A stretch of DNA of 61,921 nucleotides, counting the filler, from Bipalium vagum (lineage: Eukaryota), in assembly GCA_037834085.1 (NCBI GenBank). It is 3 parts of 3 records of this genome, joined end to end, with 100 filler letters (N's around TTAATTAATTAA, not from the genome) between each part and the next. Parts side by side here need not be neighbours in the genome. Positions count along the whole stretch, not along the records: positions 1 to 22,387 come from JBBMKC010222015.1; 2 more parts are not named here. One strand, given 5' to 3'. Both the position numbers and the translations under genes were made by a program. Positions 4,216 through 58,199 of the stretch are shown here, in pieces. The notes below the pieces were generated by a model. That model saw only the letters and a program-made list of their open reading frames with translations. It did not search any database and was not told the DNA's origin. Each line of letters begins with the position of its first letter. Within the stretch, counting starts at the first letter, position 1.

Positions 4216-5149
4216 TTTAAAATTCTACAATAAATGATGTTGATTATTTTTTAGATAAAAGATGTAATATTTTTTGTAGAGATTCTTCCATTTTTAAAAA
4301 AATAAAAAAGTATTATAATTAGAATATAGATCAAAATTAAGTTTAACATTTTCACAATAATCATTGATATTCTTATTTTGCTTTTTAAACTTTTAAAAAT
4401 CTAAATAATTCTCCATTTCATTAAAACTATAATCTCCATCATTTCCATTTATCATAGTTATTAAATCTTTTGATAATTTTAATTTTTGCGAGGGATCAGG
4501 TAAATCCTTTTCTAAATATAATTCTTTTTTTTCATTTATAATTGGAATATTTATTTTATTTATTATTAAAATATTTCATCAAATTGATGGTTTAATTGTA
4601 AAAGCAATTTTTATATCTGTTATATCTTCAAATTTCTTCATGTAAAGTATTTAATTTTACGTTAACCTTTTATATATCTTCACATTTAATACTATTGGAA
4701 TTATGTGTAAATGTTATATTAATAATAGTTTAATTAATTAATAGCTTGTTAATTTTCATGTTTTACAACTTTCATTTTCTAATTTATCAGAGAGTGTCTT
4801 TGTGCTCAGCTTATCAGTAACAGGTTTATGAAATGTTGTTAAATCTATTTATATTCCTTTTTCTGCAATGCATTTATTTAATTGATCTGAATGAAAATCA
4901 TCTTGTAGACCATTTAATTTTTTTAATATTTCAATTCTTCTGTCAAGAACATAAATTTTTATTTGCATTCATTTTTTAAAGTTAAAAAAATGTAATACAT
5001 TTTATCTATTTAAATTTTTCATTTTTCCTTTATACTCTTTTCAATCCTTTTCAAAATTCTTATTTAACTGCTTTATTTAATTTTTTAATAACAGTTCCAT
5101 TTTTAATGTCTTAAATTTTTTCGAAAAAGTCATTTATTATAACTTTTGT

Positions 5150-5450
5150 ATATTTAATTTCTTCATTACTTCTAAAGCTTTTACTTGATATAAACAAAGT
5201 TTATCAATTGAGGTTTTAACACATTTACAAATTCGTTTGAGAATTTTTTTCTTTGATATAAAATTACCTCTAATTGTTTTACTAATTGATACATTTAAAG
5301 CAGTAAGAATTGCATTACCAACGGAAATATAAATTAGTAAACCAATTCCTAATGTAGAAACTGTTACTAAAGTTGCTGTTCCAATTGCATGAATTCGAAA
5401 TTAAATATATTATACCATATCTAATTTTTAATTTTTAATTGTTTTAATAG
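5150..5450 (-). pseudogene. Polinton-associated hydrophobic/TM protein remnant
   Basis: Reverse strand AIGTATLVTVSTLGIGLLIYISVGNAILTALNVSIS followed by a Lys-rich stretch; stops present. Confidence 0.45.
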
Positions 5451-6059
5451 ATCTTCTAAAACGCTTTTCTCATTTATAAAATTTTTAATTTTCAGTTTTT
5501 CTAATTGGTCATCCAATGGATTTGAAAATATGTCCATTTCTATTTTTAATTTTAATAATAATTTTTAAAACTTTTAACAGATGTTTTTTGTTAAGGTTTT
5601 CCATCAACCATGAAATAATTCTTATAAGTATTATACAACCCAAAAACGTGATAATTATTTGTTGATCAAAAATCTGTAACATTGTTGATTGTGTATTTAT
5701 TTTTATCTGCAAGTAATATTATTGTAAATTTACTTTTTAATAATAAAACTTTTTCTCCAACCAAATACCCTAACTTGGTTATATTGATTTCTAAGTTTCT
5801 GAAATTTATAATATCTCTTTTTGAAGATTTTTAAAAGGAATACCAATAAACAATAGGTGTAACTTTTTCATACATGTTTTTATAATCATCTTGTATAAGA
5901 AAAGTTTTTAATTTTCATATTAAATATTATTTTATGAAGGTCTCCATTATCATTTTTTATTTTTGTGATGGCATCATATAAAATTTTAATATTAATTTCC
6001 ACTGTTTTGAAATCTTTTAGTTTTGTATCTTTAAATCCAGTTTGGAATTTTTTGATTGA

Positions 6060-6425
6060 TTCAAGAAATGATAGAAATATTTGTCAAACTCAACATATTA
6101 TAGTTCTAGATTGTTTTCTCATTCTTTTAAATTTTTGCTCTAAATTTTTATAATACCCAACCCAATACAAGGAATTGTATTTTGATAATTAATTAGAGTT
6201 TATTCAAATTAAGTTCTTTTTACAGTAATCTCATCTTTCATTAAACGTTTTAAAGGTATTTCTAATGTTTAGCAATATCTATTAAATCAAAATTTGTGGT
6301 TGTATTAATTCCGTAATTGTACAAAATTTTTAGAAGTAAATGATTTTTGTAATTTAAAAATTTTAAGAATTTAATCTAAGAAAACTATTTAGTTTTTAGG
6401 GTCAAAATATAAACCATTCCTTATT
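6060..6425 (-). pseudogene. Adenain-like cysteine protease remnant preceded by a G-L-Y-F/L motif
   Basis: Reverse strand RIRNGLYFDPK, then TTNFDLIDIAKH...LMKDEI...LIINYQN...YWVGYYK (with frameshifts). Resembles the Polinton PRO pattern SNFDL..AK.L....M.DEL...IINL....HWV.Y.K. Confidence 0.6.
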
Positions 6426-6679
6426 TTACAATCGTAAGTTTATTCATACTTAATTTTGTAATATTTCTTTTCATTCTTTTTTTAGATTTCCCTAAATTTC
6501 CATATTTTAAACAATTTAAAATTGCATCACTTAATTCTTTTCAAAAATATGAGTCAAATCTAATCAACTTCCTGTGGGAGGTCAAAGTATAAATCTGCCG
6601 CAGTTTTTACTTCAGAAACTTCCAAGAGCTTCGCTCGCTTTTGGTTTCAGTTTTTCAATTTCTATTTTTGACTTAATTT

Positions 6680-6935
6680 TTCCTAACACTATTTTTGCGC
6701 TTCTTTTGCTTTTTGTAAAACTGTATCAACTCTATTAGCTGCTTCAACAGTTGTACCTAATTGCGCCTAAGATTGGAATTAAAGATATAAATTTTCGTCT
6801 TTTTTTTTCTTTTGCTACTTCAACTTCCTCTTTTCTTTCCTTAGTTATATTTTGAATTAAATAATATTTCTTACCATTAAAAGTAATATATTTAGATTTT
6901 CCTACATTATATATATTTTCATTTATTCCAGTCAT
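6680..6935 (-). pseudogene. Polinton small virion protein remnant with amphipathic FIxLIPILGAIG-type peptide
   Basis: ORF 6744-6935 ends KKRRKFISLIPILGAI; a shifted frame continues GTTVEAANRVDTVLQKAKEAQ. Resembles the KxGGFLPLIPI..A.G motif found upstream of PRO in Polintons. Confidence 0.5.
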
Positions 6936-7673
6936 TTTTATAGAAAATAATTTCTTATGATTAATAATAAATAAAATAATATTATATTTTGAACTTTATT
7001 GTTTTAATTAAATAAATATATTTATTCAATGAAAAATCAAAAATGTCTCATTTAAAAGATCACTATCAAGTTTATATAATAATAAAGTTTCAAAAACATT
7101 TTTATTTATCTTTGTTTACGACGTATTAAGCTTCGAATATTTAAAAATTCGAATAATTAATAATACCGAATATTTATACTTTTTCGAATCGTATATGATT
7201 TTTTTGTTAGATCTTTGTGTGTAGTTGAATATTTTTTAACAAAATTATAAGAGGTATTCTATTTTCTGTTTAATTAAGCTACATATGAAATTCGAAAATC
7301 ACGTTCAAAATTAAAACATCCACGAAGTACATTTTTATTTCATCAGATAGACATCTTAAAATCTAAAAACCCATTAATATTTTACAAATTAATTTATAAA
7401 CAACTAATTCTAAAAAACTCAACCTTACCTCTCAAATAACATCGTTGCAACTCATTTTTATAAAATCTTCTTAATATCTTCAGTCATTTAAATCTATAAT
7501 ACCATAAATAATAGGATTTGTGTAATAAATTGTATTTATAATAAATATTTCATCTGTCCATTTTATTGTGTAACCTTTTTCATATTAATTTTATAATTAA
7601 AAATTAGAACTTTATCACCAATACTGAAGCAAAGTTTTAGTTTTCAAGTATGAGTTCAAGGTTTCAACAACTT

Positions 7674-9229
7674 TATTGGATTAATATTTTAGTTTGCATT
7701 AGTATTTTCTGATAACTACGTAAGGGTTTGGTTCGACGTGTAATGCGAGATATGCGTTTTATTCTCGAAAATACTAACCGCTAACTCTACATAAATAGTT
7801 TAGCTTTAGGCTTACCAACTCCTTCAAAGCTAGTGTAACAAATGAGTATTCTAAGATACAAACTAAGATCAACTAAAACAACAAGAATTGTTTTTATAAA
7901 ATTATATTTTGTTAAATAAATACAAATCTTTCTTATCACCTCTTCCACTACAGGGTGTCTCATAAGTCCCAGCGGAAAGCAAACTTAAATATTTCTTAAG
8001 CAGATTGAGATATTTAATCGCTTGTTTTATAAAATTAAAGATAAATATTTTAATTTTTTTTTCATATAAAAAATATTTACAACAATTGTTCAAAATGACT
8101 ACCATTAACTGATATACATAAATTCATCCTTTTTACAATATTTAAAAATATGTTATAATAGTTTTTATTTCAGATTTGAATATCTTATTCTTTAAATGGC
8201 CCCATAAATAGAAATCAAGAGGAATTAAATCTGGTGAACCTGGAGCTCATCGAACTGAACTACCTCTCCCAATCCACCTGTTCGGAAAATGAGCGTCAAG
8301 ATACCGTCTTACATTTATTGAAAAATGCACAGGAGCACCATCTTACTGAAATATCAGAGACCGTACTTTGTACATTTTCATCACTTTAAACATAAAATAG
8401 TCTTGAAGCATTGATATACATATTTGGCCATTAACAATTTCATCTTCAAAGAAATACGGACCGATAATTTTATTTTTTGACAAAGCACGCCAAACATTTA
8501 CCTGGGATTTTTTTAGCAGTTTCAAAAGTAACACGTGGATGACTTTCTGACCAATATCTGACGTTATGTTTATTTAGTAATCCTTTTAGATAAAACGTTG
8601 CTTCATCTGAAAAGAAAATATTTTCCTGAATATCCACATTTTTTAACATTGCGACCAGGGTTTTTTTGCACATCTCAACTCTGTCTTGCAATTCTTCTTC
8701 ATATAATTTCTGCTTGAAAACCTTAAAGGGTTTCAATGATAACTGTTCTCTCATAATTCGATGGGTTGTTGTTCGCGAAATGGAGCAGGTGGTTGCAACA
8801 AATTGAACACTGCATTGTGGGTCACTTTTAATAACTTCACTCGTTTTCTGAACCTCATTATCAATGATCAGACTTGATCTTCAATAACGTTCACGATCTT
8901 CCACCGAGCAAATCTCACAAAAACGATGAAAAGCTTCTTTTATAGCACTTTCACTTGGTGAGGTTTTCCCAAATTCTGCATTTAATTTTACGTTTAACAA
9001 CACAAATTGAGTTGAATTTGGCCATTAAAAGTAATTAAAAGCCATTAAAATTCTTAACTTCAAATCAACAGGCATTTGCTAAATCTGAATTCAAAATATT
9101 AAAACAAAACTTAGACTTACATACTTGAATATTATATATAAAGAAAATTTCAATCGATTGAATTTAATGAAAGATATTTAAGATTACTTTCTACGGAGAC
9201 TTATGGGACACCCTGTATCGATCCCAACA
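7674..9229 (+). mobile_element. Solo LTR (about 290 bp once the rosa insertion is removed) with 4-bp TSD ACTT
   Basis: Ends TATTGG...CCAACA, flanked by ACTT at 7670-7673 and 9230-9233; AATAAA near the 3' end. Removing it rejoins integrase as LYNEVVETLNSYLKTK. Confidence 0.6.
7951..9215 (-). mobile_element. Near full-length rosa-type (DD41D) Tc1/mariner transposon, inactivated
   Basis: TIRs CAGGGTGTCTCATAAGTC / CAGGGTGTCCCATAAGTC with TA TSD. Transposase about 9075-8077 with FFSDEATF, FQ*DGAPVH and SPDLIPLDF; 41 residues counted between the second and third Asp. Confidence 0.93.
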
Positions 9230-9487
9230 ACTTCATTGTATAAACGGAAGACCTTTATAGCTTTGGCGGGATTTTTAGATGTTTCATAAGGCGAAATACT
9301 AAGAATTCTATTGTAATAGAATTAATTAATTGAATTAAAAGATGTAACCATTTTCAGTTTATTTTGTTCTGTAAATTTTTAAACATCACATTCTTAAGTT
9401 TTATTAAATCTTTCTATGAAAACAGTTTTTCTTTCATTCTCAATTGAATAAGTGAGAAGGCGACCTTTTTCTTCATAATTATTTTAC

Positions 9488-9735
9488 TTAAGTTCTTTCA
9501 AGTTTTTCTCTTGGGGTTGGATTTTGAATATTATTCATTTTAACATCAGCAACATGTCTATATTTTAATTCTTTTGCAAAATATTTTACATCATGTTTCA
9601 TTGCTATTTTATCACCTCTATTTATTGAAATGGAATCTGGTTTAAGAATTAGGGAATTGTTTGATCTTGGAAAACATCTTCATAATTATCTGATCTTTTG
9701 TACAATATTTTTTTCCTGGTCCTGTGAATTAATGT
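9488..9735 (-). pseudogene. Parvovirus-type phospholipase A2 domain remnant (Polinton PLA2)
   Basis: Reverse strand FTGPG (Ca-loop-like)...KPDSISINRGDKIAMKHDVKYFAKELKYRHVADVKM..IQNPTPREKLER, with HDxxY and RHxAD catalytic motifs. Confidence 0.8.
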
Positions 9736-11044
9736 TTTGTTTTATTGAAAGGGTTGAAGGATTTTAAATGTACTTGACAATTTCCTGTTGAAAGTTTTTA
9801 AAAAATTCATTATTTATAATAGTTGATTGTAAATTTCCCTTTTTTTAAAAAAATGGAATATTTTTTTTGAATATTTTGAATATTTAAAACTATTGTTTTT
9901 TTTTAATCGTTATTTATTTTTTTCATGATTTATTGATACTTCATGGTGATCTATGTTTTTTAGAAAAATATTTTTTACAAAATTCACAAAACAATTTTCA
10001 TTCATTCAATTTAGATTCTTACCAAAATATTACAAATGAAAAAACCTAAAAAAATAAATTTATATTTAAAATCACCGATATACTATATTATAATCCATCC
10101 TTTTGTAATAGAGCAGGTGCAATATTGTTGATAAATAATTGAAACTTAAGAAATGGCAAACTCTGAAGAAATTTCAATACTAAGCTGTTACATAAGACCA
10201 AAAAATGGTTAACGTCAGAAATGGTAAGTTTTATGAGGTTTACTCTATCTTGTAAACTTTTCAAAATATTTATGCACTATCAAAACCCCTGGAACAGTTT
10301 AGCAATTTTTAAAATATTCCATTACCTATTTCATCTAAAATCTCGAAATCACAACGTTTATCTAGAGTCTATATAGAATTTTCTACAAAATCAATATTTA
10401 GTAGACAAGATATTAGAATCTCATTGTTTTCTTTTCTTTATCTTTTACTGGCGATAAATTCTTAATTGTCCGAGTCCATAACATCAAGAGGTTACAAGTT
10501 GAGAATTTTCACACCACAAATCGGAATGTTCTAACAGATTTATTTTATTTTTTCTTAAGATTTATTTTAAATTTCAATTAATTATTTTATTTAACTAAAA
10601 TTCTATACCAAAACAATTATCACTAGAATGAAACCTTGGAAACGTAAGATTTATTAACTGTACTTAATTGTTAAATATTATTTTAATTTTTTTTATTTTA
10701 TAATTTTAATTATTAAATTTAAAATAACAATTTTCCGACTAATAATCTTTGTGATTTTAACTAAGAGTTGTCAAATTTGTAACATTTAGGTAATAAATAT
10801 ATTATAAACACTAATTTTTTTAAAAATAGGGTTCTAGTGATATATAGATAGCGGCAACCTACCCTTGATCTTGTTCTTGATCTGTTTTTAAAAAAAACCA
10901 ACGCTGTATTATACATTATATTTAAATAAATATAATAATTGGATTTTGGAAACTAATACAAATCCTCAACAATTAAAAATTGAAAGTGAAACATGAAAAG
11001 TGAGCAAAGGTCTTGGAAGTAAAACTTCCGAAAATAATATTTCT

Positions 11045-11125
11045 TCAATTTTAAAACTAAGACCAAAATTTCATATTGGAAATAAAGTAAGAATTTTTAA
11101 ATATAAAGAAATTTGAAAAGACAAA
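11045..11125 (+). pseudogene. Short Polinton integrase C-terminal fragment in the opposite orientation
   Basis: LKLRPKFHIGNKVRIFKYKEI*. Confidence 0.55.
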
Positions 11126-12125
11126 CATAAAAAAAATTTTCTTATATATCATATATACGGAAATAAATAAATAATTAAATTAATTAACTAATTAATTAAA
11201 ATTATTAATATATAAATATAATAAAAAAGTTAATATTCAAAGATTTCTTTTCACATTTCTAAGGACATCTACTGATAAAAAGAAAAGAATTGACGAAAAA
11301 AAAAGATCAATTGATTTAACTGTGTTTTATTGATTAGCAGAACTTTGAAATTTGATGGTTGTCAGACAGTTAGATTCATTCAGCTAAACTCTCCGAGCAA
11401 CAATCAAAATTCGTAAGATTTTGCTTATTGATTTAAACAAAAACTATAATTTTTTTTCTTTGTCTCTTTGAAAAAAGTTCATAAAAATTTAAAATGTTAT
11501 AATAAATAAAAATTACTTCTCATTTTCCACGCATTTTCATGGGAGCAGAAATGAGTTACCAGCGGGAAATATTAGAAAAAATATAAATAAAAGTGCTCTT
11601 TTTTGCATAGAACGAGCTTTATTTAAGCATAAAATCATATGTTCCGGATTTCTCCATTTGAGATTATAGATAATACCAAAATCAATAGGATTATGTGTAT
11701 TTGTTAATATATTCTATTTGAGAAATTTAAAGTAACACATGTTGAGTATTTTCCAAAACAAATAGTTTTGATAATATTTCAATACAAAAAATTCTTCGTT
11801 AATTAATTTAAAAATAATTATTCAAGATAATAATTAACGATTTACAATTCACATCAACGATGTGATAATTGACTAGATTATTAAAATTAATTAATATCAA
11901 TTCGATTTACAATTGTCAAAAATCTTTTCACATTTAAACAAAGAAACCACCGTTTTTTGATCAAATTTTAATATGTAAAACAAATCATTAAGGATATTGA
12001 AAATAACTCACTTAAATAATAAAGTACACATTTTATTGTTTCTTATTTTTTAAAGACAATTTTTATTATAACAGTTCTCAATTTCAAATTTCTTGATGAT
12101 CAACTTCTTAAGTATAGTACATTTG

Positions 12126-15100
12126 TTAAAGATATGGCTGGTTAGAATGGGTGATCCATTTACTGCAAAACTTGGACTTTAATCTGGAGGTGTTTGTGAT
12201 GTTCATGTCTACTGATTTATCCCAATTCAAATGATAAGAGTGTTCAGTAGGACCTGTGAATTGGCTATAAGCCATTTTATTAGAACTGTTCAATGGACTA
12301 TCTTCAAATGTTTGTTGGTCATTGTTTGAACCCGTATACGATTTCTGCGTGTATTGCATTGTTAGATCTGGTTTTCGTGATTTTCTATTAATGAAAGGAA
12401 CGTTAGCACTTTGTTGTTCCGTAAGATATTGATCTGAGATCAGATCTAAATGAAGGTGTTGAGAACATTTTTTATTTATCAGTCTTGATTGTGAAGATTT
12501 CGATCTGTGACTGCCATGGTTAAACGAACCTAATAATGAAAAATTAGGACTTTTAAAATTACATTTTTAAATAAAAACAGTTTAAATGAAGTTTTATGGT
12601 TTTAATGATACAGTTATTTTTAAAATTATTGAAAAAGTTTCTTTTATAAAAGAAATGGGAAAAACCAGTGTTTCTATATTATAATAAGTAAAATTAAAAT
12701 TTATAAATGACAGCAGAAGAATATGTATAAGTTCAGGATGAGAGATGAGATGAATTTGAAAATATTGTTAAGCATAGAACTATCGGATTGTCAAATAGTA
12801 ATTGTCTTATTATATACTTATTCACAAAAAAGTATTACAACATAAAACGACATTTCAACAAAACAATTGTATTGGTCATCAAATAAACAATTACTATTTA
12901 ACAGTTAAAAACTGTTTAGTCCTTTGTTAAAAAATTGACAGATTGAAGCCATATATCTTGGAACAAAGTTTACTAATCTAACCTATCCCATGTCAGCTAG
13001 ACTTGCAGAAGTTATCAAGGCTAAAGAAGGTTCCATCAATTATTAAATACTAAAATAGTATTTCTTCATGTTTATTCTATTGTAATTGGATCTCTATGTT
13101 AAGAATAAGGAAATAATTTATACATAATACATGTTTTTATCTTCGTAATTTTTTATTCACTGCATTAGTTAACAGATTGTGTATAAATTAAGCGAGAAGC
13201 GTGACTCATCTGTCCATTAAACCGATCTCCAAACAGTTAAACAATTTATTACATAAATCATATCCTGCGCTTACAACTCTGCGTCTAGCTGTCTTCGTTT
13301 ACCATATTAACTCATTTCCTTTTATCCTTTATCTGCTGACAGGTTCCACCGATTTGAATCTGTTCCTTTTCATTTTCATTTTTAAGCTAGCATCTTGCTT
13401 TACACTTAATTTTCTTGGCATACCAGATCAACTTTTTCTATCACAGCTTTCTTCATTTCTGGTTGATAAATGCATTCTATCGGTAACATCACGAAAGGTC
13501 ACCTTGGCTTTTAGCAAACAACATAATCTTCCTTTCAAATAAATTTAATTGAATCACTGAAAAATATTGTTAAAAAAAACTAAAATACTGTTGATAGCTG
13601 AATTATTTATTGTTCATATCAAACGAATTTAAATATTGTGTGTGTGGTGGAACTTTGAGGGGATTATACAATCCTAAGCATTTCCAGATGGCCAAACCAT
13701 TACTGCTGAGTTATATTCTGGTCAACTCGATTGGATGTACCAACAATTAGCCATAAAATATCCTGCTTTAGTCAACAGAAAGCGGGTGCTTCTGCAACAG
13801 GAAAATACTCGTCAGAATACTGCGCGAGTAACGCAAAATAAAATTACCCAATTAGAAGGAATTGAAATTTTATCACATCCTGCATTCAGTCCAAATCTAG
13901 CATCCAGCGATTACCACCTTTACCGATCAATGACTCATTTCCTTAGAGGACGACAGTTTGAGAATATAGAACAGGTTTAAAATGGATGTCGTGAATTTTT
14001 CCTTTCCAAAGATAAAACATGGTACCGGAGTGGCATCGAACAACTTGCCCATTTTTGAATTAAGACAGTTGAACATAATGGTCTTTATTTTTCTGAATAA
14101 AATTTGTCTGATTGCTAGATTCTTATTTCTGAAACCAGCATAATATTTTCATTAAAAACGCACGAACTTATGAATCAACCCAATAAAACCAAATAAATGT
14201 CAGATCACACTTACAATCAAAATACAGTGATAATTTATTGTCATTAAATTTAATAATCTCATTTTTTAGTAGTCTACGACGCGGAGATTATGAAGAAACA
14301 ATCTAAAATAATTTTTAGTACTTTTTTTGGTTAAGTACATATATTTATTATTTAATAGTTATATATAAAGTTATTAAACAAAGACGATGAAGAAACCCAA
14401 AAATATTTAACTGATTCAATCAATGTAATTGACCAAGCAATTTCAAATCACTTAAGAGATATTGAAAAGAATCAGGGTAGAAAGTAAGTGACCTATGAAT
14501 GTGGTTATGAAACAAACAACGTAGATCTTACCTTTTAAAGGTAAGAACTCGATATTTTTAAATCTTAAGTGTAACAGTTTTCGTGTCTATACCATATCAG
14601 CGGACTCATGGAAAAAAGTTTACTGTCTGAAATATGAGATGAAAACGATATTATGTATCGAAATAAAGAGAAACAGTTACTGGCAATGGTTATGAACATC
14701 GACTAATGTAGTTAAACATGAACTCAGACCAAATATTCCAGAATCAGAATTATCTATAAGGATTTGAAATTGATACTGTGTCATAATAAATTAGGCTTCT
14801 TGTCGCAGATATGTTAAATTCATATAACTTATAAATAAATAAAATAATAATTTTTAAATTATCTTTCACCCATTTATAATATTTCACTTGCACTGATTAT
14901 ATTTATATCCTTTATAAAATTATTATTATTATATTTTTAATCCGACAATGTCTCGTCCTTTAATGAAATAATAAAAAATTTAAAAATAAAAGGAGCAAGC
15001 CCAATCATAATTTTTAAACTTTTATGAAATATTTGTTTAAAAAAGTTATTAAAATATGATATAATAAAAACATAAGACAACAAATTAACACTTTTCAAAG

Positions 15101-18100
15101 ACAACATTTAATACATAGTTTACTTAGGTCGATCTTTACCTTCCTGAAAAATATAAAATAAATATTTAAACTACTTTTTTAATTAATGAATTTTGATTCG
15201 AAAACGTTTTCTTCAAAAATACATTACATATAATTTTCTACTTAAATTACTTGATCCATAAAGTCCTTAATGTTATATTTTAAACTATCGGGACTTCTTT
15301 GAGAGTTTTCAGTTGATATATCATTAATGGAAGAGGCTCCGGTGTTTGTATTGAGATGAGGAAACTGTTCCATGTTTAAGATTGGTAGGTCTCCTTTAGA
15401 AATAATCAAAATATCTTCTTAACAAATCAAGAAAGTTACCTAAGGGTGTTTCTAGCCTTTTCTGATTCAAGGTTTGATCTCGCTTATTGCGAGTTTTTCT
15501 TATGTAACAAGTGATAAATAATATATTGATGGCGAGAATAACAAATACAAAAACGGATACTGAGGTCATTGTGACAACAATGTTTTCTGACGTAAGTTTT
15601 TCATTATTTTTACTGGATGGCGAAACAGAACCCAGGTTAATGAAGTTTTGAGAATCTTAATAAATTATGGAATAAAAAAATTATAATTACATCAAATGAA
15701 TAAGTTTTACTTGATGTTTTAGCTTTTATTGGGGCAGTATATTTACAATTTTGGAATCTTTTATTCTTCGAACAGATCTGAATTTCATATTCTGTGGAGC
15801 TTGATAATTCTAAAAAATGATTAATATTATTTGTTACAAAACATAATGAATATTTATAATTTAGAAATATAATTTCTTTAAAGTAAAAATGGACCAACAT
15901 TTTTTATTGGTCCATCTTAGACACCCGTCATTTTTAATTGATCCATTTTTTATTTATTAGTTGTAATTTATCAAAATAAATTAACCGTCAAAATTAAAAA
16001 TACCATCTAATTATTCAATAGTAACAAATGAATAAAAAAATGAATAACAATAATAAATTCGATAATACAAAAAATGATGGTCCGTAAAAATAAATGTTAT
16101 AAAAAAATTTGTTTTAAAATTTCTTCATAATTAAAAATTTGATACATTTAAAAATTTCCTTAAATAACATATAGTAAGATATATAATATTAGAATATATA
16201 ACAAAGTGACTATTGAGTGCCTTTGCAAGTGTAAAATTTTATTATTTAGTTATTAAGAATTTTCCAAATGTTCTATGGAGAGTCCAATCATCATCATTGT
16301 CATAACAACATTAGGTTTTTAAGTTAGAAATACGCGTGTTAATGAATAATATTTACTATTGTATAAACTCCCATAAAGACGGCGTTTCTAACTTAACAGC
16401 CCAATAATAATAATAATTCTTATATTGTTATGTGATAGCAATAATTCTTTTAAAGATCAATAATTCTTGTACTTCGTATTTTAATTGCTAATTCTTAATG
16501 ATCATTATTATTATCATTCTTATTAAAGTTATAGATTTTTTTAATATTTAGAGATCTTTCTGGTTAATGTTTCTTTCATGATAACAGAGCCAAAGCGTTT
16601 AAATACTTATTATGCTTTTCTCTCCATTAAATCTTGTATTCAAGTTTAAAAGAAAGATTTGAAACTAACAATGAAAAAGCTTGTAAACCAGAGTTAAGTC
16701 TAAAAGGTAACTTTCATTGATTTGTTTTGGTAACATTTTGGTTAAAATTTAAATAAGAAATTCTTAAGCAAATACGTTAATTTACTAAGACCGGTCATTG
16801 GTCACCATAATGAATCATATGAAAAATTTAATAAAACAATAAATAAATTTTTAGTTAGACCAAACGTGCCCAGGTTGGTTTATTCATTAACATAAGATGA
16901 TATTAAGTATTGAAATTTGGTCAATGTTTAATAATGTTCATAACCTGAATGAAAATAATTATAATGCAATTTCAAATATTACACATCACTTTACACCAAT
17001 ATATCTAAACTTAAATAATTAAATACTTATAAACTGGTAACCACTTAATTGTTACCTGGTATTGTGTAATATAACCAGTCATACATTTTTAATATTTAAA
17101 AAATATTAAAAATAAGTTCATTTTTGTAATAAAATAATTCATTATAATAATTTATTGTTTATATTATAACAGTTTGTTGATTTGATTATCTTTTTTCATT
17201 TTACAGGGTCGTCGAGATAAATCTGGAACATTCAAAAAAATGAAAAAAAAGATTATTTGAATACTCACTATAATTATTGTTGTTTTAGTACGATAATTCA
17301 TCAATAGAACATTAGTCAAATTTACATTATTTAATATTAGTGATGGGATCAGAATACAACTGAAGAACAGAAGCGTTGGAACCACTTCCGTAGGAAGAAA
17401 GTCAAAAGATAATTGAATAATTTGACTACAACATGACTCAATCTTGAGTTGGTAAATAGCAATACTAAAACAAAAGATACAGGACAAAGAAAATATCTCT
17501 GTTGAGCAGAAAAACTCTTTTTCTGCTCGTAAAGCATGATCTTTCGGAAACCTGACCTACCATTAGTCACCTGAATTAATATCACCCTGAAGTTCTGACT
17601 ACAATTCTCTCGATTATTACCTATGTGACCTAGTTAAATCACTCAAAACATCATAACAAAATCAAGTCCTTACAAGATGCCATCAAATAGGTTATGTCTA
17701 AATTGCATAGGAAAGAGATGAAGCTAGTATTTCAAGCCCAGTTCAAGGTAATTGTGATCACATTGAATAATCATCAATTTTACACTTTCATTCAGTTATA
17801 TGCTTATTTTTATTGTAATAATGTTATTAATTTTGTATATTTACATCTTTTTGCAAGAATAAGTATTTTTCGGATTTAACTCGACGACCCTGTAGTTACA
17901 GAAATATTATTTTTGCTTTTCTAATATTTGATTCTCTGTTGGTTTGAATATTACCTCCAGAAACTACTATATATTATTATTCGGATTTTATTCCAGAAAT
18001 AGTACATTAAAATCAGAATACCTTTCAGAGAGAACATAATTTTCTCTTCTAAAGGATTCTCTGGAACAATTGCGGACGTGATTATTAAGCCAAAGTCATA

Positions 18101-23962: not shown

Positions 23963-26900
23963 ATGGAATATTCCAATCCCGGATCAACAGCAAATCTGCC
24001 ATCGTCTAATAATCACATGTCGACAGAAGGTGCTCACAATTACGGTGATAATTCCAACGAGACCAGAGTTTTATCACCGGCAACCTATAGCCATTTCGAT
24101 GAAAAACAAGCATATCAATATCAAAATCAACCATCATCTCTCAATCAACTTTTACAAAACAATCAGTATGGGCCTTATTCTAATTTATCTTTGCGTCCAC
24201 CTGTTTCCAGTAATTATCATGCAAATTATCGAAATTACGAAAACAATTGGAATTTATCCCGATCTCAAGTCGAATCAGCTGTAAGTAGTAAATGCTATTA
24301 CTTGACTTTGTAAAGTAACGTCGTGACTAATTTAGCGAATATATTATTCTCAATATCAAGAATCATATCCCCAAAATACCAATGATGTCAATTCCAAAGG
24401 GGACAAAATTAAACCCAGCGATTATAATATGATTTCCAGTGAACTGCAAGGTAATAATAATAATTACAAATCGGACAATCGAAATTACCAAAATAATAAA
24501 TTGGATAAATCGAAGACGAATTTTTCCGATTGGAAACATAAAAACGAAACGATAAGTTCCATGGATGCAAATAATAAAGATAATATGATTAAAACCGATG
24601 TTGAGGTAATAATTGTCACATTTGATTTTTGTTTAAATTATGCACAAATTTAAAATTGTTTATTCTGATTTAAAAATTATCATTGATTTAAATTGTCATT
24701 GATTTTTTCGATTTTAACTACTACATAATTTAATGAATATTGGATTTTAGATTAAGCCTGACAAGCAAAATTCCACCGATTCGTCTGATTTAACTACGAC
24801 GACTTCCAAATCAGATTCCAATGTCAATACTGGTTTTCATTTAAATACTTGTAGCGATTTGTCATTAGATAAAAACGATATGCACAATGGACCTAATTAT
24901 ATCTATGAAAATAAAATCAATCAACAATGTAAAAACAAACATTGTGATAAATTTGTTGGAATTTTAATGTTGAAAAATGTTATTTTTATTTAGCTCAAAT
25001 GAAACCACAAACGTCGGCCGGTTATGATAATCCAATGTACAATCAGATGATGATGCAGCCTCAAAATTCAGCATATTATTCACAATTTCGTTACACCAAT
25101 CCTCCACCACCCAACAATACTCAAAATTACATTAATCCGAATAGCAGTGCAATAATGTCTAGTTCCATGTCGCGACCGCCATTGTTCAATTATCCAAATT
25201 ACATTCAAATGTCCAATTCCGCTCACGGTTACGGTGGATATCATCCGTCAAATATTTTACACCAAAACCGTCCGTTAAACGTACACAGCCCGTTCGTGTC
25301 AAGAGGAGACCAGTCTCCGTTCTCTCCCAATCCAGATAATTATATGAACGGATCAATTGCGTCACATCAAAACAACAATAGTGGAAGTTTAAAAGAATCG
25401 ACGGAAAGAAAAGGTAAAATGAATTGGATATATAACGTCTTTTTTGTTTATTTGCAATTCTGAAGAAGAAATCAATGTTCTTGTCAATATCAACCAAGAC
25501 ACTTCCAGCGCCGGTAGCAATTCCAACAAATCGGTCAATGCCAGGTCCTGTGCATCGAAAACCAAGAACGCACAAAAGGTTGGAATTGATTTGTTATGAA
25601 ATTTAATTGATAAAATCAATCTATAATAGTAAAAAAAATTCATTGATCAATATTTATTTGGTCTTTGTTATAATTTGAGTTTTTTTATGAGTATTTGTCA
25701 AGTTAAACTTTTATTTGTAATCAAGTTTTTCGAAAACAAATTGATCACCGTTAAATATTGAAATTGATTGTAAACTAGCAATCAATTTTTTTATGTCGAT
25801 CAATTCAATTCATTTTTTGCTTTATTGAGAATTTGTCTTGAATAAGGATTATCCAATAGCTTAATGTTGAAATATCTTAATTAATTGATTGTTAATCTTT
25901 GAATGTAAAATTCTCCTATCAGTGTCAATTACTGCTTTGATATCGAATGATTAATTCTTTCAAAGGTTTTCGATTATTATTATTGTAAGCAGAATATTGA
26001 TTCTTTTTTGTTTAATGTAATTAATAAATGACTCTTAAACCTCATTTTTTGTAGTAAACATTTGGTGATTTTTCTTTAATTTCAGCACCGTATCCCATTT
26101 TATGATATGCAGTGGTTTTCGTTGACATTTAATAATAGAGAAAAGGTTTCTTGTTCGAATTCTTTGATTTTGAATATTTCAATATACAAGCCATAGATTC
26201 TTCCTCAAAAGTTTTTCGAGCAATTTCAATTTTTATATAATTGATAAGAATTGAAGCTTGGTTTTTCTAGGAATTTTCATTAATATGTTTAGTATTAATT
26301 TTTCTTAAAGATTGATCTTTTTATTCTTTAGAATAATTACAATAAGTTTTAATAAATTATTACTAAGTAATACGAAATTAATCATTTTTTAAGTGGTGGA
26401 ATACTACAAATAACCAATTAAAATCTGTTTCATCACGATAATTATTGAAATGATAAATTATTTAAGATAATTAATTCATTCGTTTTTGATATTTTTTAAA
26501 AAATATGAAATTTGGTTCAATTAGGAACATGAATTAATTATAATTTATTTTGATTGATAGACTGAGATATTTTTAATTTTATCAACATGATTTTAAATCG
26601 TCTAAATGGATTAATATTACATTTTTCGTCAAATCTCTTAATGGGAATAATATTTTTAACCTTTTTTACCGTACTCCATTAAATTACTTTAGTTTTTTAA
26701 AAATCAATTAATTTTCTGATTAACTGTGAATTTAATTTTAATTTCTCTCAATGAACTGTTTAAATATTTTAATCTTTTACAAAAATTATAAATATATAAC
26801 CAAGGTACATAATATATTTACGGACGTGATGAGTTATTGAATAATAAGATTTAGGTTTTTAAAATGTTTCTTTGAAAATAGTTTAATTATTTTGCATTGA

Positions 26901-29900
26901 TAATCAATACATTTAATTTTAGAATGAAAGCCATCCTGCCACTCCAGTAAGCAATACTGTTCCTTCACCTTCACAGACTAGCATGAGTTCGATGATTGAT
27001 GAAAACGAAGACAGTGTTAGCAGTTTAGGGCCCAGTGAAACGGGCTTACTTCATCATACATCATTGTCCAATCAATCACAATTCAGCCAACATCAAATGA
27101 CTCCAGCTATGTCCCAGAATCACTCCATTATTTATCCTCAATCCTATCCCAATAACCAAGCTCCTCATACAATGATAAGTTCTTTTCCGAGTCATTTGCC
27201 TCCACAACACAGGCCTTTCACGCCCAGCTCCAATATGATGTCTAATCGCCAAATTTATCATAATGAATCTCAGATCAATAATAGTTGTTATCAAAAATTG
27301 ATGGAGCTGGGAAACGAACCTGAAAGAGGACCTTGGATTGAAAGGTATCTACGATTCATGCAAGAAAACAATACTCCTCTCAGTGCTGTACCAACCGTTG
27401 TTAAGCAGCCCCTTGATCTGTTTCGATTATATCACGCTGTTCGCGAACGAGGAGGCCTGTTGAATGTGGTCAAAACCAAGAGATGGAAAGAAATTTGCTT
27501 GATTGTAAACGTCAATGCTTCAGCATCTGGCGCGTATACGTTGAGAAGAAATTATATCAAGTGTCTTTTGGATTATGAGTGTAAGTTTGATCGAAACGGT
27601 GTCGATCCTGGACCAATATTACAGGAAATTCAAAGTCTATCAGACAAAAAGAAAAAGAGCACTTCTAGGAACACGGGGTCGTCACCATCTTCCACAATTT
27701 CTTCAGGTCAGACATCACAACATAATTCAGAATATGGTAACACCTCAACTCCCAGACCCCCAATAGCACATCCTGATTTTAATACTCCTCATCCTTTCCA
27801 TGGTCATAACCCATACAACAATGTTTTTCATAACGGCTCCATGATACATAGAAGCCAAATGCATTATCAAGCTCAACGGGGACAAAATCCATACCCGGGT
27901 CCATACACCGGTCCACGAATGATGGGTTTCAATTCTCCAGTCAATGCAATACATCCTCATGTAAGATATGATTCTAATATCCCTCAAAACTGGAACAAAT
28001 CAATCGTCATGAATCAGCAACAGCAACAATGGTCCAGTTCAGGTTCCAGTAACAATTCCACGCATCCAATGCAAATGCCAATGTCGCCGGGAGCTCCATC
28101 CAATATTCCAAATGTATTCCAACAGTCTCAACAAAGTGAGTGTTTAGTAAATTACTAATTTCCAATAAAATGCGTATAAACTTTATAAATTTAAATAGTT
28201 GGTGATAATTTTGACATCAATTCAAAAGATGCTTCCAAATTGGAACCTAACCTGGCTCGTTATACGACTTATGACAACAATAATAAACATTTGGATAATT
28301 TTAGTGTTGATAAAGAAGCCGATAAAATTGAAATGATTTCTAAATCTGACTCTTCAACCTACTACAATAATCCTTATATAGAATATGCTGGGCCAGAAAT
28401 ATGCGATTATAAAAATATGGCTTCTGCTAACACTAGTCAGTTTTATCCACCAATGCAACAATACCCATGCTTCACGTACTCACGACAATATAGTTCAACA
28501 TTTCGACAACCTGTTCCTAGCTCACTTTCATTTTCATCCTATTATCCACCAAATCCTAATTATATTTATCCGCCCAGTGGTGCTGTTTCTTATTCTTCTA
28601 ATATGATGACTAATTCCCATCACGTAACCAATAGTGTCAGCTCACATTCCTCTACACCGTACTATTCTAGTAAGTTCAGTAGAGCATCAGTCGCACTTTT
28701 GAATGTCGTTATGTTAATGTTACCACCTGTTTGTTTATTATATTTATATATACATATATCATATAATATGCATGTTTGTTCTCAGTAATAAAAATATTAC
28801 ATATTGATTTTTTTTTGAATTTCTAATCAATAATGATAATTAATAATAATTAATTCAGTTGGAAATATTCAAGAGCATTCTCGAAGAATGGATTGGAAAT
28901 CAAATTACGGTGGAATGCCTCCTCCTCCTCCACCACCTCCCAATGTTCAATCATCAAATAGACCAAATCTTCCCAATACATCTCAAATTGGATCTGGTAA
29001 TCATCAACAATATCATTCAACTATCTCTCACTCTAATTACTCTAACCAAGCCTCAAGCTCGTACAGTCAACAAAGACCAATAAATCCCCAATTACCATCA
29101 AATTTAATGTCTATAAATCGAAACATTCTTCAACCTACCAATAATAATTTGGGTGATCAAATGAATTACATTAACAAATCTATAGGGCTCTCTTCGTCCA
29201 ATGCTATACCGAATTCGAATCATAGTTTGTCATCTAATTCCAGTTATAATAGGTCGCACATGGAGAATTTGAGGATAAATCAAACTTTTGAGCCATCAGT
29301 AAGTTTATTTTTGTTTCATTAATTAGAAATGCTTTATCAGTAAAAGTATTTTTTATGCAAAATATATTTTAAAAATTATAGTAAATAATGGTTGGTGGTA
29401 AGTGCGAGTGTATTATAAAAATACTTTTCCCCAAATAAATTAAAATTTAAAGCCACCAGAATTCAGAGATAATTATTAATTCTAATATTTCCTCTTTTTA
29501 TGAGGCATTTGTGTACTGCAAATAAAAATTCAATTAAGATTTAGTTGACAATAAGAACAACACCGATTTATTATCATAGCAATTTTCTACTTGTTGACAC
29601 GAATTGTCTTGGATGTCAATTTTGCAATTTATGGTAATTGAAGTAGGAAGGAAAATATAATGATTATATTTAGATATTTAAGAAATTCTGTCCTACATTA
29701 ATCATACTATGCTTTTGCATTAGGACTACAATTTTATGTGCACTAACATTTAAGGATATTGATTTCTCATAAATTAAACTATTGATTTATTTTTGTATTA
29801 TTTTTTTACTATTAAAAAATCAATATTGATTGAATAAACTTTCAGTTTTTGTTATCATTTCATTAGCTATTTTCAAAATTTTCATGTCTTCTATATGCTT

Positions 29901-32326
29901 TAGAGATAAGCATTTTGTGAAATAGATTCAAAATTGTCGATTAGTATTGACAAAATCTGTGTTCCGGTCGTAGTTTTAGCATGTGATTGTAAAATGTCTA
30001 TGATATTGTTTATTAAACTGCCTTGTATGTGTATTTTTGGTGTTGGTAGTGGTGGCAGTTGTCTTTGTATTATTAATTTTAACAATAGTCTATTTATAGG
30101 CTTATTTTCTGATTCATTTTTTATCGATTATTTAAATGTTTACACCTTTTGTGGTTTAGAAATCAAATTCTCAATTTCTGAAACGATATGTTAGTCTCTT
30201 TCCTCCTAATTCTGTTGAGGCAACTCAACCAGATTACAGCAAAAAAAGAAAATTCCGTACCAAAGATATTAGTAAGAATCGTTAGCTGAAAAGATTTTAA
30301 ACTTCACTTTTCAACTTTAGAAGTATTTAATCCAACTAGTGTTACCATGGCTCTAAAATCCGGACTTGTTACGGAAATTAATTGGGCATTAAACTCTCTG
30401 AATATTTGGTCCAGGGATGATACGTTTTTTGAAAAATTGAACTTGAAAAATCTCATGCCAATGTTTCAAGCTTTAATTGACGTATGGCGTAACAGTCTGG
30501 GAACCATATTTGGCAGAAATCTGTTCATTAAAGAGTTGGAACTGCCAGTCATTCTCGATGAAAATGTTCACAATAAAATGGATGTCAAGATTTTTCTCAA
30601 GAAAATAGGAATGGTTCTGAAAAACAGACAATTTAAGCAAGAAAAAGAAGTTAGTACAAAATTTTCCATGAATAAGCCTGAAGATGACTATAAATTTGCT
30701 CAAGACAAAGTTATTGATTTATTACATGGAACTAAATATTCAATGGACCGAAATGGGTTATCTGTTAAGTTGGATTTAAATGCAAAATTAGAATATGCTC
30801 TTGACGGAGATTCTAATCTTAAGGATTTTGTAATCAAAATGTGTTCAAATTCTTCTGCACCAGAAAATGAAAATAATACAAACTACTTTGATTTTAAAAT
30901 GCAATCTCAATCAAAAACGTGTAGTCTTAGTGATCTTTGGAATATAGGAGGGTCTGATTCAACTTATCATATCTTACCCCCTTTACTGTCACAAAATAAA
31001 AATACCAATAACGAATGGTATTTACAGCTGGCAAACTGTGATATTCCTCAAATTCTCGACACCTCTGAAAATTCCTGTTGTGAGCCACCAGAAATTAAAA
31101 GAAGTAGATGTACATCTCCACATTCACCGTCGTCTTCGAATCCTCCAAATTTAGAGCACGAAAATCACATAGGCACTCTGAAACTCATCGAAAGTGTTGA
31201 TGATGTCGAATGCTGTCGGTTACAAGCTAAATCAGAAATAATCAATGATGGTGAGACTCTTTTTTTCAACATTGAAGACTCTGATGAAGAGAAAATGTTG
31301 AGATGTATCAGTGTGTCGAATGCCATAAGAAATTTGAGTTTTCTCAATGGAAACGATCGATTGATTGGGTCTAATCGTGCTACCCTAGTGATCCTTGGTA
31401 GATTACTTTTGCTCGGTCATGAACACAGTACAGGCGAATGGCCCACTGTAAATAACGAAAAGGAACGCTGGTGGTTAAAGTGGATCGATGATATTCGGGA
31501 ACATGTATTTGTCACCTTGGTTAACATATCAAGCTATTTGGAGCTCAGTAAACATCATGAAATCATTGTTCGGCCAATTATAACAGGTTTGCTTCATTGG
31601 CTAACATGTACCTCTGCCGCTGCAGAAGATTCGTTACCAAGTCACAGAGTTTTAGGTTGTCGCAGATTGGCATTGGAAAGTCTAATGAGGTTATGTGTTC
31701 ATGAAAAGAATATCGATTATATTCTGTCAACCAGTAAAGGGTCAGATTCAGTGATACGAGAACTATTTAACTATTTGACCTCATCCTTTTGCTATCCTGA
31801 TGTTCAAATTGTCAAAGAAATGTCATTAGCAGTTATGCATTATTTGTCTATGGGGGGTGAAAATGGGATTGGCTGTATTTATTTAGCCAATGCACAGCCA
31901 AATATAATAAGCGGTTTAATAAGTTTCATAGAAATCACTGAATCTCAAATTAGACACGTTGTTGATAATATGGGCATGGAAGCCTTACAAGCGAGGCCAG
32001 AGCTGATGGGAACGAGTCTGGAATTTTTAAGACATTCAGGTGCTCTGTTAAATCGAATAGCAACCTTTGAAGTCAACAGAAAACACTTCAGTCGAGATCA
32101 TGAAATTAGAATGTTAAATTTGGTTATATCTACGGTCCTGGATCAAACTGTAGCCCAATCAATATCCGGTGTCTTGTACCTTCTCAGTAATCATGATGTA
32201 AATCAAAGTAAACCAGAAACATGTAACAAATTCAAGTCCTTCTTAACTTTTAATGATTTGAGCTTCTGTGAGAAGGATAATGCGGTGTCGTCAATACACG
32301 AAAGCGAGACAAATTGTGCAAACTGA
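23963..32326 (+). CDS. ARID1: ARID1/osa (BAF250) SWI/SNF subunit. Exons 23963-24280, 24336-24605, 24751-24928, 24994-25413, 25466-25578, 26923-28135, 28199-28669, 28859-29298, 30160-30271, 30321-32326.
   Basis: ARID domain (KLMELGNEPERGPWIERYLRFM...KQPLDLFRLY.AVRERGG...W...LRRNYIKCLLDYECKFDR); FPPNSVEATQP motif; BAF250_C region (MALKSGLVTEINWALNSL, RCISVSNAIRNLSF, LMGTSLEFL). All nine introns are GT-AG and in phase; 5541 nt in total. Confidence 0.95.
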
Positions 32327-33739
32327 TAATAAAAAGATATATTTAGCTGTAAGTAATTCTGAACCTGGAAGCCGGTGCTTTTCTTTCATCATAAATAACA
32401 AATTATTTCAATTCCAAAAGTTGTACTGTAAATATTTTTATTTACTGTTAGAATTTCTGATTTTGTGTTAAATTCTCTCTTAATTGAAAGATATTTATAC
32501 TGAAACATTTGTTTTAGTATGGTTATGTAACTTATTAGATTCTATCCGATTATTTAAGATAAATGTAAAGGATATCAAATAATATTCAGTTCATGCGATG
32601 AGCTTATTAAAATAGTTAAGTTGAATAAAGTTAGTGTAATATTAAGATGGAGTTTTATTGAAATCTTAAATTTGTTTTACTTCGTTGAGGAAAATGCATT
32701 TCTTATCCTTTGTGTAAATGTATAGAACGTTTTACTGTCTTTGTAGGTTTAGTGTTATAATTATGATGGGTTTTTATAATTTTCTGATCGTGTATTATTT
32801 GATAATGGAAATTATTTAATTTGAAATGGAGTCTTTTCATGTATAATATGTAATATAAATGTATGTGATAATGATTTATTTTGACTAGTTTTGTTTTAAT
32901 AATCTAATACTAACAAATATTATGTAAAAAATTTAAATAATCTTTAATGAAAAAATTAAATATTTGCATAATATTTATCTTTATCAATTAAATTATTTAA
33001 AGGATATTTTCGATTCGGTTTTTCAATTATCTACTTTGTAAAAATAAATAAATTATGCATTGGTAAATTTGAAGTCATTTTGGAGATCCTTTGCAGTGAA
33101 TGGAGATCAACGCATTTCTATTTTCTCAAAAGTGATCTTTTGTAAAAAAGAAAGATGTTTGAAGTTTGTTAAACTTAGTATATCTATTATTGTTAATCAA
33201 GAGAAGTTAGTGTAAAAAAGTAATAAGTAAATCTGATGAGTAATAATTTACTTTTATACATGAAAAAAGTATATAATTCGAACTTTATGTAGTAACTGAA
33301 TATGAGATGTCAAAAGGGTTAACCATGTAAAAAAGTAAATTAATATTGTATAATAAGAATAATTTCAAAAACTAACATTAATATTACTCATTAGTTATTT
33401 TATAATTATTATAAAATGTTAATAGCAATTATAATTTGGTGATCATAAACTAATTTAAGGGTGAAAGTGATAAAAAAAATATTTACTAAATGAATTGTTA
33501 ATGAATTTTGTTCAAAAGAAGGTTTGGAAGAAAGTGTTTAATTTTTGGTGCACGTTACTCAAACAATTTTCGTTTCCAAAGTTTTAAATTTATTTATTAA
33601 TGTTACGATCTATACAGTGCTCCAACTAATTATTGCCGAACAAAGAAAGTGCACATGTTTCAAGATAGCAGCATATTTTTTGAACTATTATTATATTTTT
33701 CATTAACGGAGACAAACACATAAGGAAAATGACCGATGG

Positions 33740-37519: not shown

Positions 37520-37875
37520 GTAATTAACCTCGGCGTCGAGGTTAAGAATAGTACTCCATCGTTGGAGTTACTGAATTCTTTTGTCTCGGCGTGGAAGCAA
37601 AAATAGCAATTAGAGGCTATTGAGGGAGATAGCCATCTCGAAGCATAGGGATTGGTGATCGTAGGCCAATCTCTATGACTATATAAAGACGGCTATTCCC
37701 ATCAATTCGCCGTCAGGAAAAACTACAGAGAACTACGAATTCAGGACGTCGAAGCAGGTATATCAAAATTTCTGTGGACATGACAATGCAGAAGGATTTC
37801 ACAAGGGAACCCAGCGAGCTTGGGAACTCCTAGGTGACCTGAGAAGGGCCTAGAGGGCGTTTGGGGACCCTTTGA
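37520..37875 (+). mobile_element. LTR-like promoter repeat, homologous to 56356-56930 (- strand)
   Basis: Shared blocks TAGGGATTGGTGATCGTA, AATCTCTA.GACTATATAAAGA (TATA) and TGGGAA.TC.TAGGTGACCTGA.AAGG.CCTAG. Confidence 0.75.
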
Positions 37876-38300: not shown

Positions 38301-38504
38301 GCAATTAAATCAAGCGTGGTATAGTTTGTTTGGAATGAAGAAAGCAACGAATCAGAAGCAGGGTCAACTACAGCGGGACGATCATAAGAGATACCACAAG
38401 AACAACCAGAATTCAGACAATAAGCAAGGCAAGAAGAAAATCAGGAAGATGAACGAAGAAAAACTCAATCAGGACAAGGATCGAGGTCAACGAACGATTC
38501 GTGG

Positions 38505-38957
38505 ATGCCCAAGATGTTAATAATGGTTATGATGTTTTTGAATATGATGAGCAAATCGAATGCATTGGTAGGATACGATTGTATGAAGGCGAAAATGGGA
38601 AATATATATTCATTGTTAGATTTGGAAGGGTGCCCAGAAGCCTACTCGACGAATTTAACCAGCAGAGACGTAGAGAACCATATTTATAAGGAGACAGAAT
38701 TTAGAAAAGCAAACATGAAGGAGGGTATCGTGAAGAAGGCAACATTCGAGTACTATTGCGGATTTCACAGAAGAATAGCCTTCTTGGAAGCGAAATTGAT
38801 ACCAGTTCCCATGATTGTGAATTCGGAAAATTGCGAATCAGCCTTTGTAACAAGGAAAAGAATAAAAGAAGCAGGACTTATAGTAAATTCAGAGAAATAC
38901 CCATCTACTGAGAACAATTTCAATAGCGTTAGGACAAATATGTGGGAAGAACAATGA
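38505..38957 (+). pseudogene. N-terminal fragment of a chuvirus-type glycoprotein / env-like protein
   Basis: Signal peptide MPKMLIMVMMFLNMMSKSNA, then LVGYDC...YSLLDLEGC...EF...YYCGFH...VNSENC. The Cys/motif spacing resembles chuvirus-like glycoproteins (LIGYDC...SLLDV..C...CG.HSH...C). Confidence 0.7.
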
Positions 38958-43675: not shown

Positions 43676-44645
43676 CAAATAATATTTAATAATCAATTTA
43701 AAATTATTTTTTGTTGATTAAATGATACGGATGTTGGAAAATAATTTGCTTTTAAATACACTTTGAAATCGTCTTTAATTGTTTTGATTTTAGATATCAA
43801 AAGTGAAATTGCCGTAGGTTACACAGTAAAAAAGGATACAGTATAGTCAAAAATGGTATATTTCCAATTTATTATGCCATAATTGTTAAAAATAAAAAAA
43901 TGTAATACAATTTAAAATAATTGATGATAAACACGAATTAGTTGATTTTAATAATGAAGAAATTAGTTTGACAATTCAACTCAAACAAGTAAATGTCTGA
44001 ATGATAATATAGAAAAAAATTAATCATCATAAAAATTAACCTTCAATTTTTTAAATATTGACAATCGGATAATAATAATTTGATTAAAATTTCTTAAACT
44101 TTTTTCTTGCAACTCGCTTTTCAATATATTAAAAAATTTTCGATTACAGTTTATCTAAAGATGTTTATGAATTGTTTAAAGAGAAAATAAAATTTCAAGA
44201 AAATATTATGAATTTAAATATCCAAATGAAACAAATCGACATAATGGAAATGTATTTTACATGAGGTAAACATAACAAATGCTCTATTATTTATTTATCA
44301 CAATTTTTTTATTTACTCTTAAGAAGCAAAAGAAATTATTCAAATTTGTTAATATTTATAAAAAAACTTGGATTGGATTCTTCTTTATATGTTTTCATAA
44401 AGATTTTAAATCTTACATGTTGGAATGATCACCCACTGCTCCTCCGAATTCTTCTACTGTGCCTCAATATTTGTCGACCTACACATAGCAACTCTGGCTT
44501 TCAGATCAGTCGACAATGTCTCAATAATATTCAAATATAAAGCTAACATCAGCATGTATCTAATTAAAGTATTTCAAATCAAAAAACTTCTACTTAAAAC
44601 CATAATCTAATATTATGTTAATTCTTATATGGTGGCCTTGTGGAG

Positions 44646-58175: not shown

Positions 58176-58199
58176 TGTTTTGCTTATCAATAAAAAATT

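Follow-up and report, generated by a model that had tools for sequence, protein, structure and literature searches.

Does the minus-strand debris at 4300-10030 in a stretch of DNA from Bipalium vagum (assembly GCA_037834085.1) come from one virus-like element, from several, or from none? A first-pass annotation of this stretch (61,921 nucleotides, hereafter the window) had described a Polinton/adintovirus-like remnant, possibly composite, that retained entry and maturation genes. Our comparisons support the first part of this description. The locus is best read as a decayed and deleted Polinton/Maverick (adintovirus-type) remnant on the minus strand, in which six or seven genes survive as broken fragments (Table 1). 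These are probably what is left of one element that died, lost parts by deletion, decayed, and was split by a mariner transposon.

Results

The window is AT-rich DNA of animal type (21-41% GC per kb). We compared it with reference proteins by a frameshift-aware aligner that returns coordinates and scores, using single proteins and then composition-corrected profiles; shuffled queries and other tiles of the window served as controls. One minus-strand frame of 4300-7698, its stops written as X, was also searched against 1.84 billion proteins. Fourteen matches had E < 0.001: P0002, P0003 and 12 integrase C-terminal pieces. P0002 matched (E 1e-14, about 4950-4350) an open reading frame (ORF) for which we coin the label 'FKP', and P0003 matched a transmembrane (TM) protein gene (E 2.3e-6). 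Pairwise, the 'FKP' ORF scored 245 against 83 in shuffles (82/213 residues identical) and the TM gene 201 against at most 72 (66/163 identical). A 'FKP' profile from 8 Polinton loci matched 4932-4768 at a score reached by 1/200 shuffles and 0/181 tiles. The TM family matched an ORF of the capsid-bearing locus L003 with a probability of 96% (E 1.8e-9); it gave no match in viral and prokaryote collections, and in the Atlas the best value for the TM piece was 0.80, a low recognition.

The integrase alignment led to 11 IMG/VR loci and the TM family to 10 short metagenome loci (L013-L022). By Pfam, L002, L003 and L004 (3/3) carry a double jelly-roll capsid gene (PF21738), rve, PLA2 (PF08398) and DUF5679, and an A32 ATPase was present in both of the two scanned among them. 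Relatives of the confirmed pieces are thus located in contigs with capsid, rve and PLA2 in all three loci checked. The gene content of L005-L012 was judged by eye from ORF lists; most are of insect-type appearance, with a fused PLA2-pX and then adenain. Beside the TM gene in the short loci we found a capsid C-terminus in L014 (E 4e-4, below cutoff) and an integrase tail in L022. The long ORFs beside it in L016 and L017 are, to judge by their motifs, probably pPolB.

The neighbourhoods of these genes recur as well. The pair PLA2-integrase is found in L002, L003 and L004, the pair pX-adenain in L004, L007, L008, L010 and L012, and the pair TM-'FKP' in L002 and L003. Because capsid-bearing Polintons show the same three neighbour pairs, one deleted element accounts for most of the remnant. 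The capsid gene comes soon after 'FKP' in L002 and L003, and the capsid genes of L004 lie between integrase and pX; both positions are empty or too short in the remnant, which fits deletion.

The PLA2 label of the first-pass annotation was confirmed. Against L003 this domain scored 106 (z 14.5; 35/74 identical), and none of 25 shuffles exceeded 45; a profile whose reference ORFs are PF08398 gave 106.5, and its shuffles reached at most 51.5. The glycine loop and the His-Asp pair of the domain are still visible, in separate frames. Used in a word-based search for homologs, the PLA2 piece yielded 0/4 candidates. The segment before it is placed like the front of the DUF5679-PLA2 ORFs of L002 and L003. 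A Zn-finger had been assigned there; its profile score was equalled by 101/300 shuffles and Pfam was blank. A best-of-277 match of a 'FKP' ORF to 9914-9740 (z 8.1) was dropped: in the profile test the score was reached by 69/200 shuffles.

The integrase is present in two parts, which follow one another in the profile without overlap. The core part scored 85.6, with 1 stop and 2 frameshifts and with the first ~115 profile positions absent; 9/11 integrases beat all 200 shuffles there. The C-terminal part scored 156.3, was 39/65 identical to P0006, and collected 12/14 of the database matches. In 10 shuffles the whole-window maximum for this profile was 50.9, so the integrase call of the annotation is secure. 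No chromodomain was detected after the C-terminal domain. An integrase match at 7630-7948 was reached by 21/150 shuffles, with 0/11 integrase proteins significant.

Between the two parts lies a Tc1/mariner-type transposon that the annotation had missed and that fills about a fifth of the annotated span. Its arms (7949-7992 and 9174-9217) are inverted and 84% complementary over 44 nt, and TA flanks it on both sides, as a target duplication. The transposase frame matched DDE_3 with E 0.066, under threshold, and its longest frame is 136 aa. The DDE motifs were seen by eye, and the assignment as a DDE/D transposase is tentative. A duplicate integrase core helix to the right of the transposon was tried and rejected (0/11 integrases significant). 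Elsewhere in the window we noted a further mariner-type remnant at 13678-13980 (+; Transposase_1 E 0.0016) and mariner-type inverted arms at 17202-17248 and 17848-17894.

The pX-like helix scored 57.2, above the highest value of 20 whole-window shuffles (48.7), and its score was reached by 0/300 local shuffles and 0/166 other tiles; the amphipathic peptide proposed here is therefore real as a label. The related reference ORFs matched Adeno_PX with E 0.005-0.008, below cutoff. A GLY motif placed next to it was not confirmed, with 296/300 shuffles reaching its score. For adenain, the expected interval gave a score reached by 5/300 shuffles and 2/93 tiles, and by 0/300 and 0/93 with a lower frameshift penalty. 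Its position agrees with five reference loci where adenain comes after pX. This piece lacks the His of the H-W motif, and the Cys half was not detected. The segment is probably, on weak support, the N-half of an adenain; its score is significant in the expected interval but not across the window.

A second integrase tail had been placed at 5500-5950, and the term composite rested on it. The tail was reached by 19/150 shuffles and, in a profile retest, by 37/200; its nucleotide match to the real tail was reached by 106/200. A single point favours it, namely the position of the integrase tail in L022 directly before the TM gene. Among 277 reference ORFs the best for 5597-5743 was L013:1-783, which lies upstream of a TM gene (z 3.7; pairwise E 3e-5; 15/50 identical), and its profile score was reached by 5/200 shuffles compared to 37/200 for integrase. 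The same ORF also scores 57 (z 3.5) at the unrelated 4374-4085. In the Atlas it falls near LamG/ConA clusters (0.94), with 10/10 best family matches in one clan; it shares 134-144 of 256 features, while same-family matches typically share 170. Because the fold model is poor (AlphaFold pLDDT 42.8; Foldseek without a match at E 0.001), the LamG label is drawn from the Atlas. In 4/10 short loci a LamG-like ORF, or the tail of one, lies ahead of the TM gene (13-30% identity). The segment 5597-5743 may possibly be a piece of a LamG-type fibre gene. Two tandem LamG-like ORFs stand ahead of the TM gene in L013:1-1636. In L003:9360-10151 there is an F5/8 type C (discoidin) carbohydrate-binding domain (E 6e-9), another lectin-type candidate fibre.

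Table 1. Features of the remnant and related pieces in the window
Feature	Position	Strand	Basis
Conserved Polinton ORF with 'FKP' motif, 7-9 stops	4300..4972	-	P0002
Conserved Polinton TM-protein gene, 3-4 stops, 2-4 frameshifts	5011..5558	-	P0003, profiles
Possible piece of LamG/ConA-like (fibre-type) gene	5597..5743	-	L013 ORF match
Probable adenain (vUlp1-type protease), N-half	6129..6303	-	Profile 4-66 of 131
ORF remnant with pX-like amphipathic segment (6842-6692), one frameshift	6692..6935	-	Profile
Integrase C-terminal domain	7442..7628	-	Profile 208-270 of 310
Unexplained stretch, about 300 bases beyond the need of the integrase profile	7630..7948	.	
Tc1/mariner-type DNA transposon, itself broken	7951..9215	-	Inverted arms, TA
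rve integrase, second half of core only	9229..9471	-	Profile positions 116-200
PLA2 domain, parvovirus-type, frameshifted, C-terminal end missing	9482..9734	-	Single protein, profile
Possible N-terminal part of PLA2 gene, one CxxC (by eye)	9740..10010	-	Position
Small inverted piece: half like 6580-6670, half like integrase C-terminal domain	10965..11135	+	Profile, tiles
Polinton scraps: penton C-terminus (43834-43988), packaging-ATPase piece (44238-44363)	43834..44363	+	Profiles

The annotation had recognised no pPolB, ATPase or capsid gene, and none was detected inside 4300-10030. Over the whole window, four single pPolB proteins and a six-sequence profile gave nothing above shuffles; the references are distant, and this is not proof of loss. 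The ORFs used as references are presumably pPolB, a name given by their motifs and not by Pfam. A pPolB-like match of 24 codons at 7359-7291 beats 150/150 local shuffles; it is equalled by 4/202 tiles and lies under whole-window shuffles. For the major capsid protein the best profile score in the window was 42.6 compared to 44.5-52.2 in shuffles, and single proteins were negative, with detection limited by distant references. A capsid C-terminus in the gap at 6940-7440 was rejected (57/100 shuffles reach its score). Neither penton nor FtsK/A32 packaging ATPase was detected within the remnant. Terminal inverted repeats were not found at the flanks either: the best flank-to-flank inverted score was 95, compared to 129 in an unrelated control (896 tile pairs). 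Direct scanning of the window pieces against viral contigs gave one chance match (L001) and otherwise none, and a PDB sequence search gave 0 matches.

The window holds further Polinton debris beyond the main remnant. The penton and ATPase scraps were each reached by 0/200 shuffles, by 0/202 and 0/186 other tiles, respectively, and scored above all 8 whole-window shuffles. They are broken, lie 34 kb from the remnant on the other strand, and nothing ties them to the main copy. The small inverted piece near the remnant scored 64.8 with the integrase profile (0/150 shuffles, 0/158 tiles). For both of its halves the best of 809 tiles is in the remnant (57 compared to 43 for the next independent tile, and 64 compared to 54).

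Outside the inserted transposon, the longest stop-free frames of the remnant are 63 and 87 aa. An ARID1/Osa (BAF250) host gene lies at about 24950-32330 (+; ARID domain E 1e-18, BAF250_C E 3e-58), and frames of 411 and 678 aa stay open in its exons. Since host exons in the same window remain open, the gene breaks are real and not a general sequencing error.

Discussion

The first-pass annotation was right in seeing a decayed, deleted Polinton/adintovirus-like copy, which homology and neighbour pairs support. Comparison with Polinton proteins by frameshift-aware translation bore out the core genes, and order and minus strand are correct for those confirmed. Five of its eight labels are clear or probable; the other three are unsupported, the term composite is unproven, and one Polinton ORF had been overlooked. 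To say that entry and maturation genes were retained is an overstatement: all are broken pseudogenes with no sign of selective keeping.

Several observations weigh against a single deleted element. None of 24 short pieces of the remnant reached the Pfam cutoff, nor did any of 27 whole frames show a family, but these blanks have little power because the mariner control also fell under the cutoff. In L002 and L004 the TM and 'FKP' genes find weak matches (E 0.004-0.15), and the adenain score of 33.9 is under the mean maximum of whole-window shuffles (41.1). The whole gene order of the remnant is in no single reference contig. About 500 bases at 6940-7440 are unexplained, as are the ~300 bases at 7630-7948, and the inverted piece of ~170 bases near 11 kb requires rearrangement or a second copy. 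Polinton termini are inverted repeats ending in (AGT)2 or (AG)3, and a 6-bp target duplication goes with them (PMC8097293); at the flanks of the remnant we found no paired end motifs and no 6-bp duplication.

Some of these points would be explained if nested insertion or recombination had brought together two or more Polinton copies or families, the joins lying at 7630-7948 or 6940-7440. The extra bases between the integrase parts would mark such a junction, and the inverted piece unites sequences that are 900 bases apart and in opposite order in the main remnant. Also speaking for a joined locus are the penton and ATPase scraps at 43.8-44.4 kb, the pPolB-like match with its success against local shuffles, and the arrangement in L022. 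However, the integrase parts fit one protein in line and without overlap, no duplicate helix lies across the mariner, the second tail is not significant, and the pPolB-like match is equalled by a few other tiles and lies under whole-window shuffles. We consider a composite unlikely.

A non-autonomous deletion derivative amplified in trans, or a set of entry genes that the host preserved for some function, would leave mostly virion-accessory genes on one strand, which is what survives here, and the PLA2 residues still seen might be taken in the same sense. Against both, every gene is broken; the termini needed for mobilisation in trans were not found, and no second nucleotide-level copy occurs within the 62-kb window at E < 1e-3. 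Because no gene is intact, present function or domestication is unlikely, and we judge this explanation very improbable as a whole. Chance resemblance to unrelated AT-rich repeats or to other integrase-bearing elements (Ginger, Gypsy) is the poorest account and hardly credible: AT-rich DNA does yield lysine/asparagine-rich matches, one of z 8.1 failed its profile test and three earlier labels fell, but database-wide E values of 1e-14 and 2e-6, composition-corrected profiles and tile controls, and relatives of PLA2, pX, TM and 'FKP' met only in Polinton-type contigs largely refute it for PLA2, integrase, TM and 'FKP'.

One dead, deleted Polinton thus remains the reading that we prefer, and its history probably ran as follows. 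A single Polinton would have integrated in the germline by its own rve integrase, as is expected from the family, and then died and presumably decayed neutrally. Deletions would have taken the termini, the front of the integrase and the genes for pPolB, capsid and ATPase, and point changes and small indels would have produced the breaks seen in each remaining gene. The Tc1/mariner element entered a TA inside the integrase region, which was probably already dead or dying; it is placed later because it is nested. While the element was alive, membrane entry was probably the task of PLA2 and the pX-like helix, and adenain probably processed virion proteins; a LamG-type fibre, if present, may have bound receptors. 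The locus today is most likely inert.

The remnant has in common with Polintons/Mavericks (class Polintoviricetes) and adintoviruses (PMC8502044) an rve integrase, a parvovirus-type PLA2, a pX-like segment and a probable adenain. PLA2 and pX-like accessory genes that act on membranes are described for adintoviruses (PMC8502044), with a membrane-entry role for PLA2 and pX and a maturation role for adenain (PMC8502044; PMC11161782). In the remnant PLA2 and pX are separate genes, whereas Alpha-type modules (PMC8502044) and the insect-type loci L007-L012 have a fused PLA2X. Unlike Polintons and adintoviruses, the remnant is without detected pPolB, major capsid gene, termini and 6-bp duplication. 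Assignment to the Alpha or Beta class would need a pPolB, and since pPolB, major capsid gene and termini were not detected, we file it as a remnant of the family and not as a complete member.

Degraded germline adintovirus copies have been described (Starrett et al. 2021, PMC8502044), and Polinton relics occur in the human genome (PMC9683012; PMC8502044). A vertebrate survey counted 134 intact Mavericks and 2,166 without discernible terminal inverted repeats (PMC8097293). Stops, frameshifts, large insertions and lost inverted repeats are common to such vertebrate fossils (PMC8097293; PMC9683012) and to our remnant. The remnant is most likely an ordinary fossil of a kind already known; animal genomes commonly carry dead copies of this sort, and most vertebrate Mavericks are in this state (PMC8097293).

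Two conserved ORFs of the remnant are shared with the capsid-bearing contigs L002-L004. All three resemble the remnant in that PLA2 either immediately precedes the integrase or is fused with it, and in that pX has an ORF to itself. In L002 and L003, as in the remnant, the TM gene stands before the 'FKP' ORF. L004 resembles the remnant in other ways: all of its genes run on one strand, pX, adenain and TM follow one another, and no chromodomain closes its integrase. Protein identity to L002-L004 is 30-50% over the matched parts, and the DUF5679 Zn finger that is clear in these contigs is not demonstrable in the remnant. DUF5679 genes are common in coral elements (PMC11131425). The closest protein matches are L013-L022, P0002, P0003, P0006 and P0007 (38-60% identity), which at 21-32% GC are similar to the window. 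The contigs of L013-L022 are 1-5 kb long, with no whole element of the lineage among them.

The remnant adds one further host record, for a lineage whose closest relatives are metagenome proteins without names. We tentatively suggest, with considerable doubt, that it belongs to a Polinton lineage of AT-rich animals that has been little sampled, in which all genes share one strand, the integrase has no chromodomain, PLA2 and pX are separate, and a lectin fibre of LamG/ConA-like type adjoins the TM gene. If so, the fibre would be a candidate glycan-binding receptor protein of an animal Polinton. Published maps of adintoviruses already mark fibre genes (PMC8502044, supplementary Fig. S2). It is this possible LamG-type fibre alone that gives the locus wider interest, since it would suggest how such elements bind cells; in this copy the evidence for it is weak.

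Other features of the window

The penton and ATPase scraps adjoin a retroelement-like integrase remnant, and an N run lies nearby at about 44881-44980. Broken retroelement-like sequence extends over 37.7-43.5 kb, with an integrase-like match at 43148-43491, around a fragment of a Monjiviricetes-type fusion glycoprotein (38424-38957, +; PF24664, E 3e-13). A tandem duplicate of about 450 bases (73%) was found at 58172-59265, and inverted repeats at 37578-37859 and 56396-56841 share 75-84% identity.

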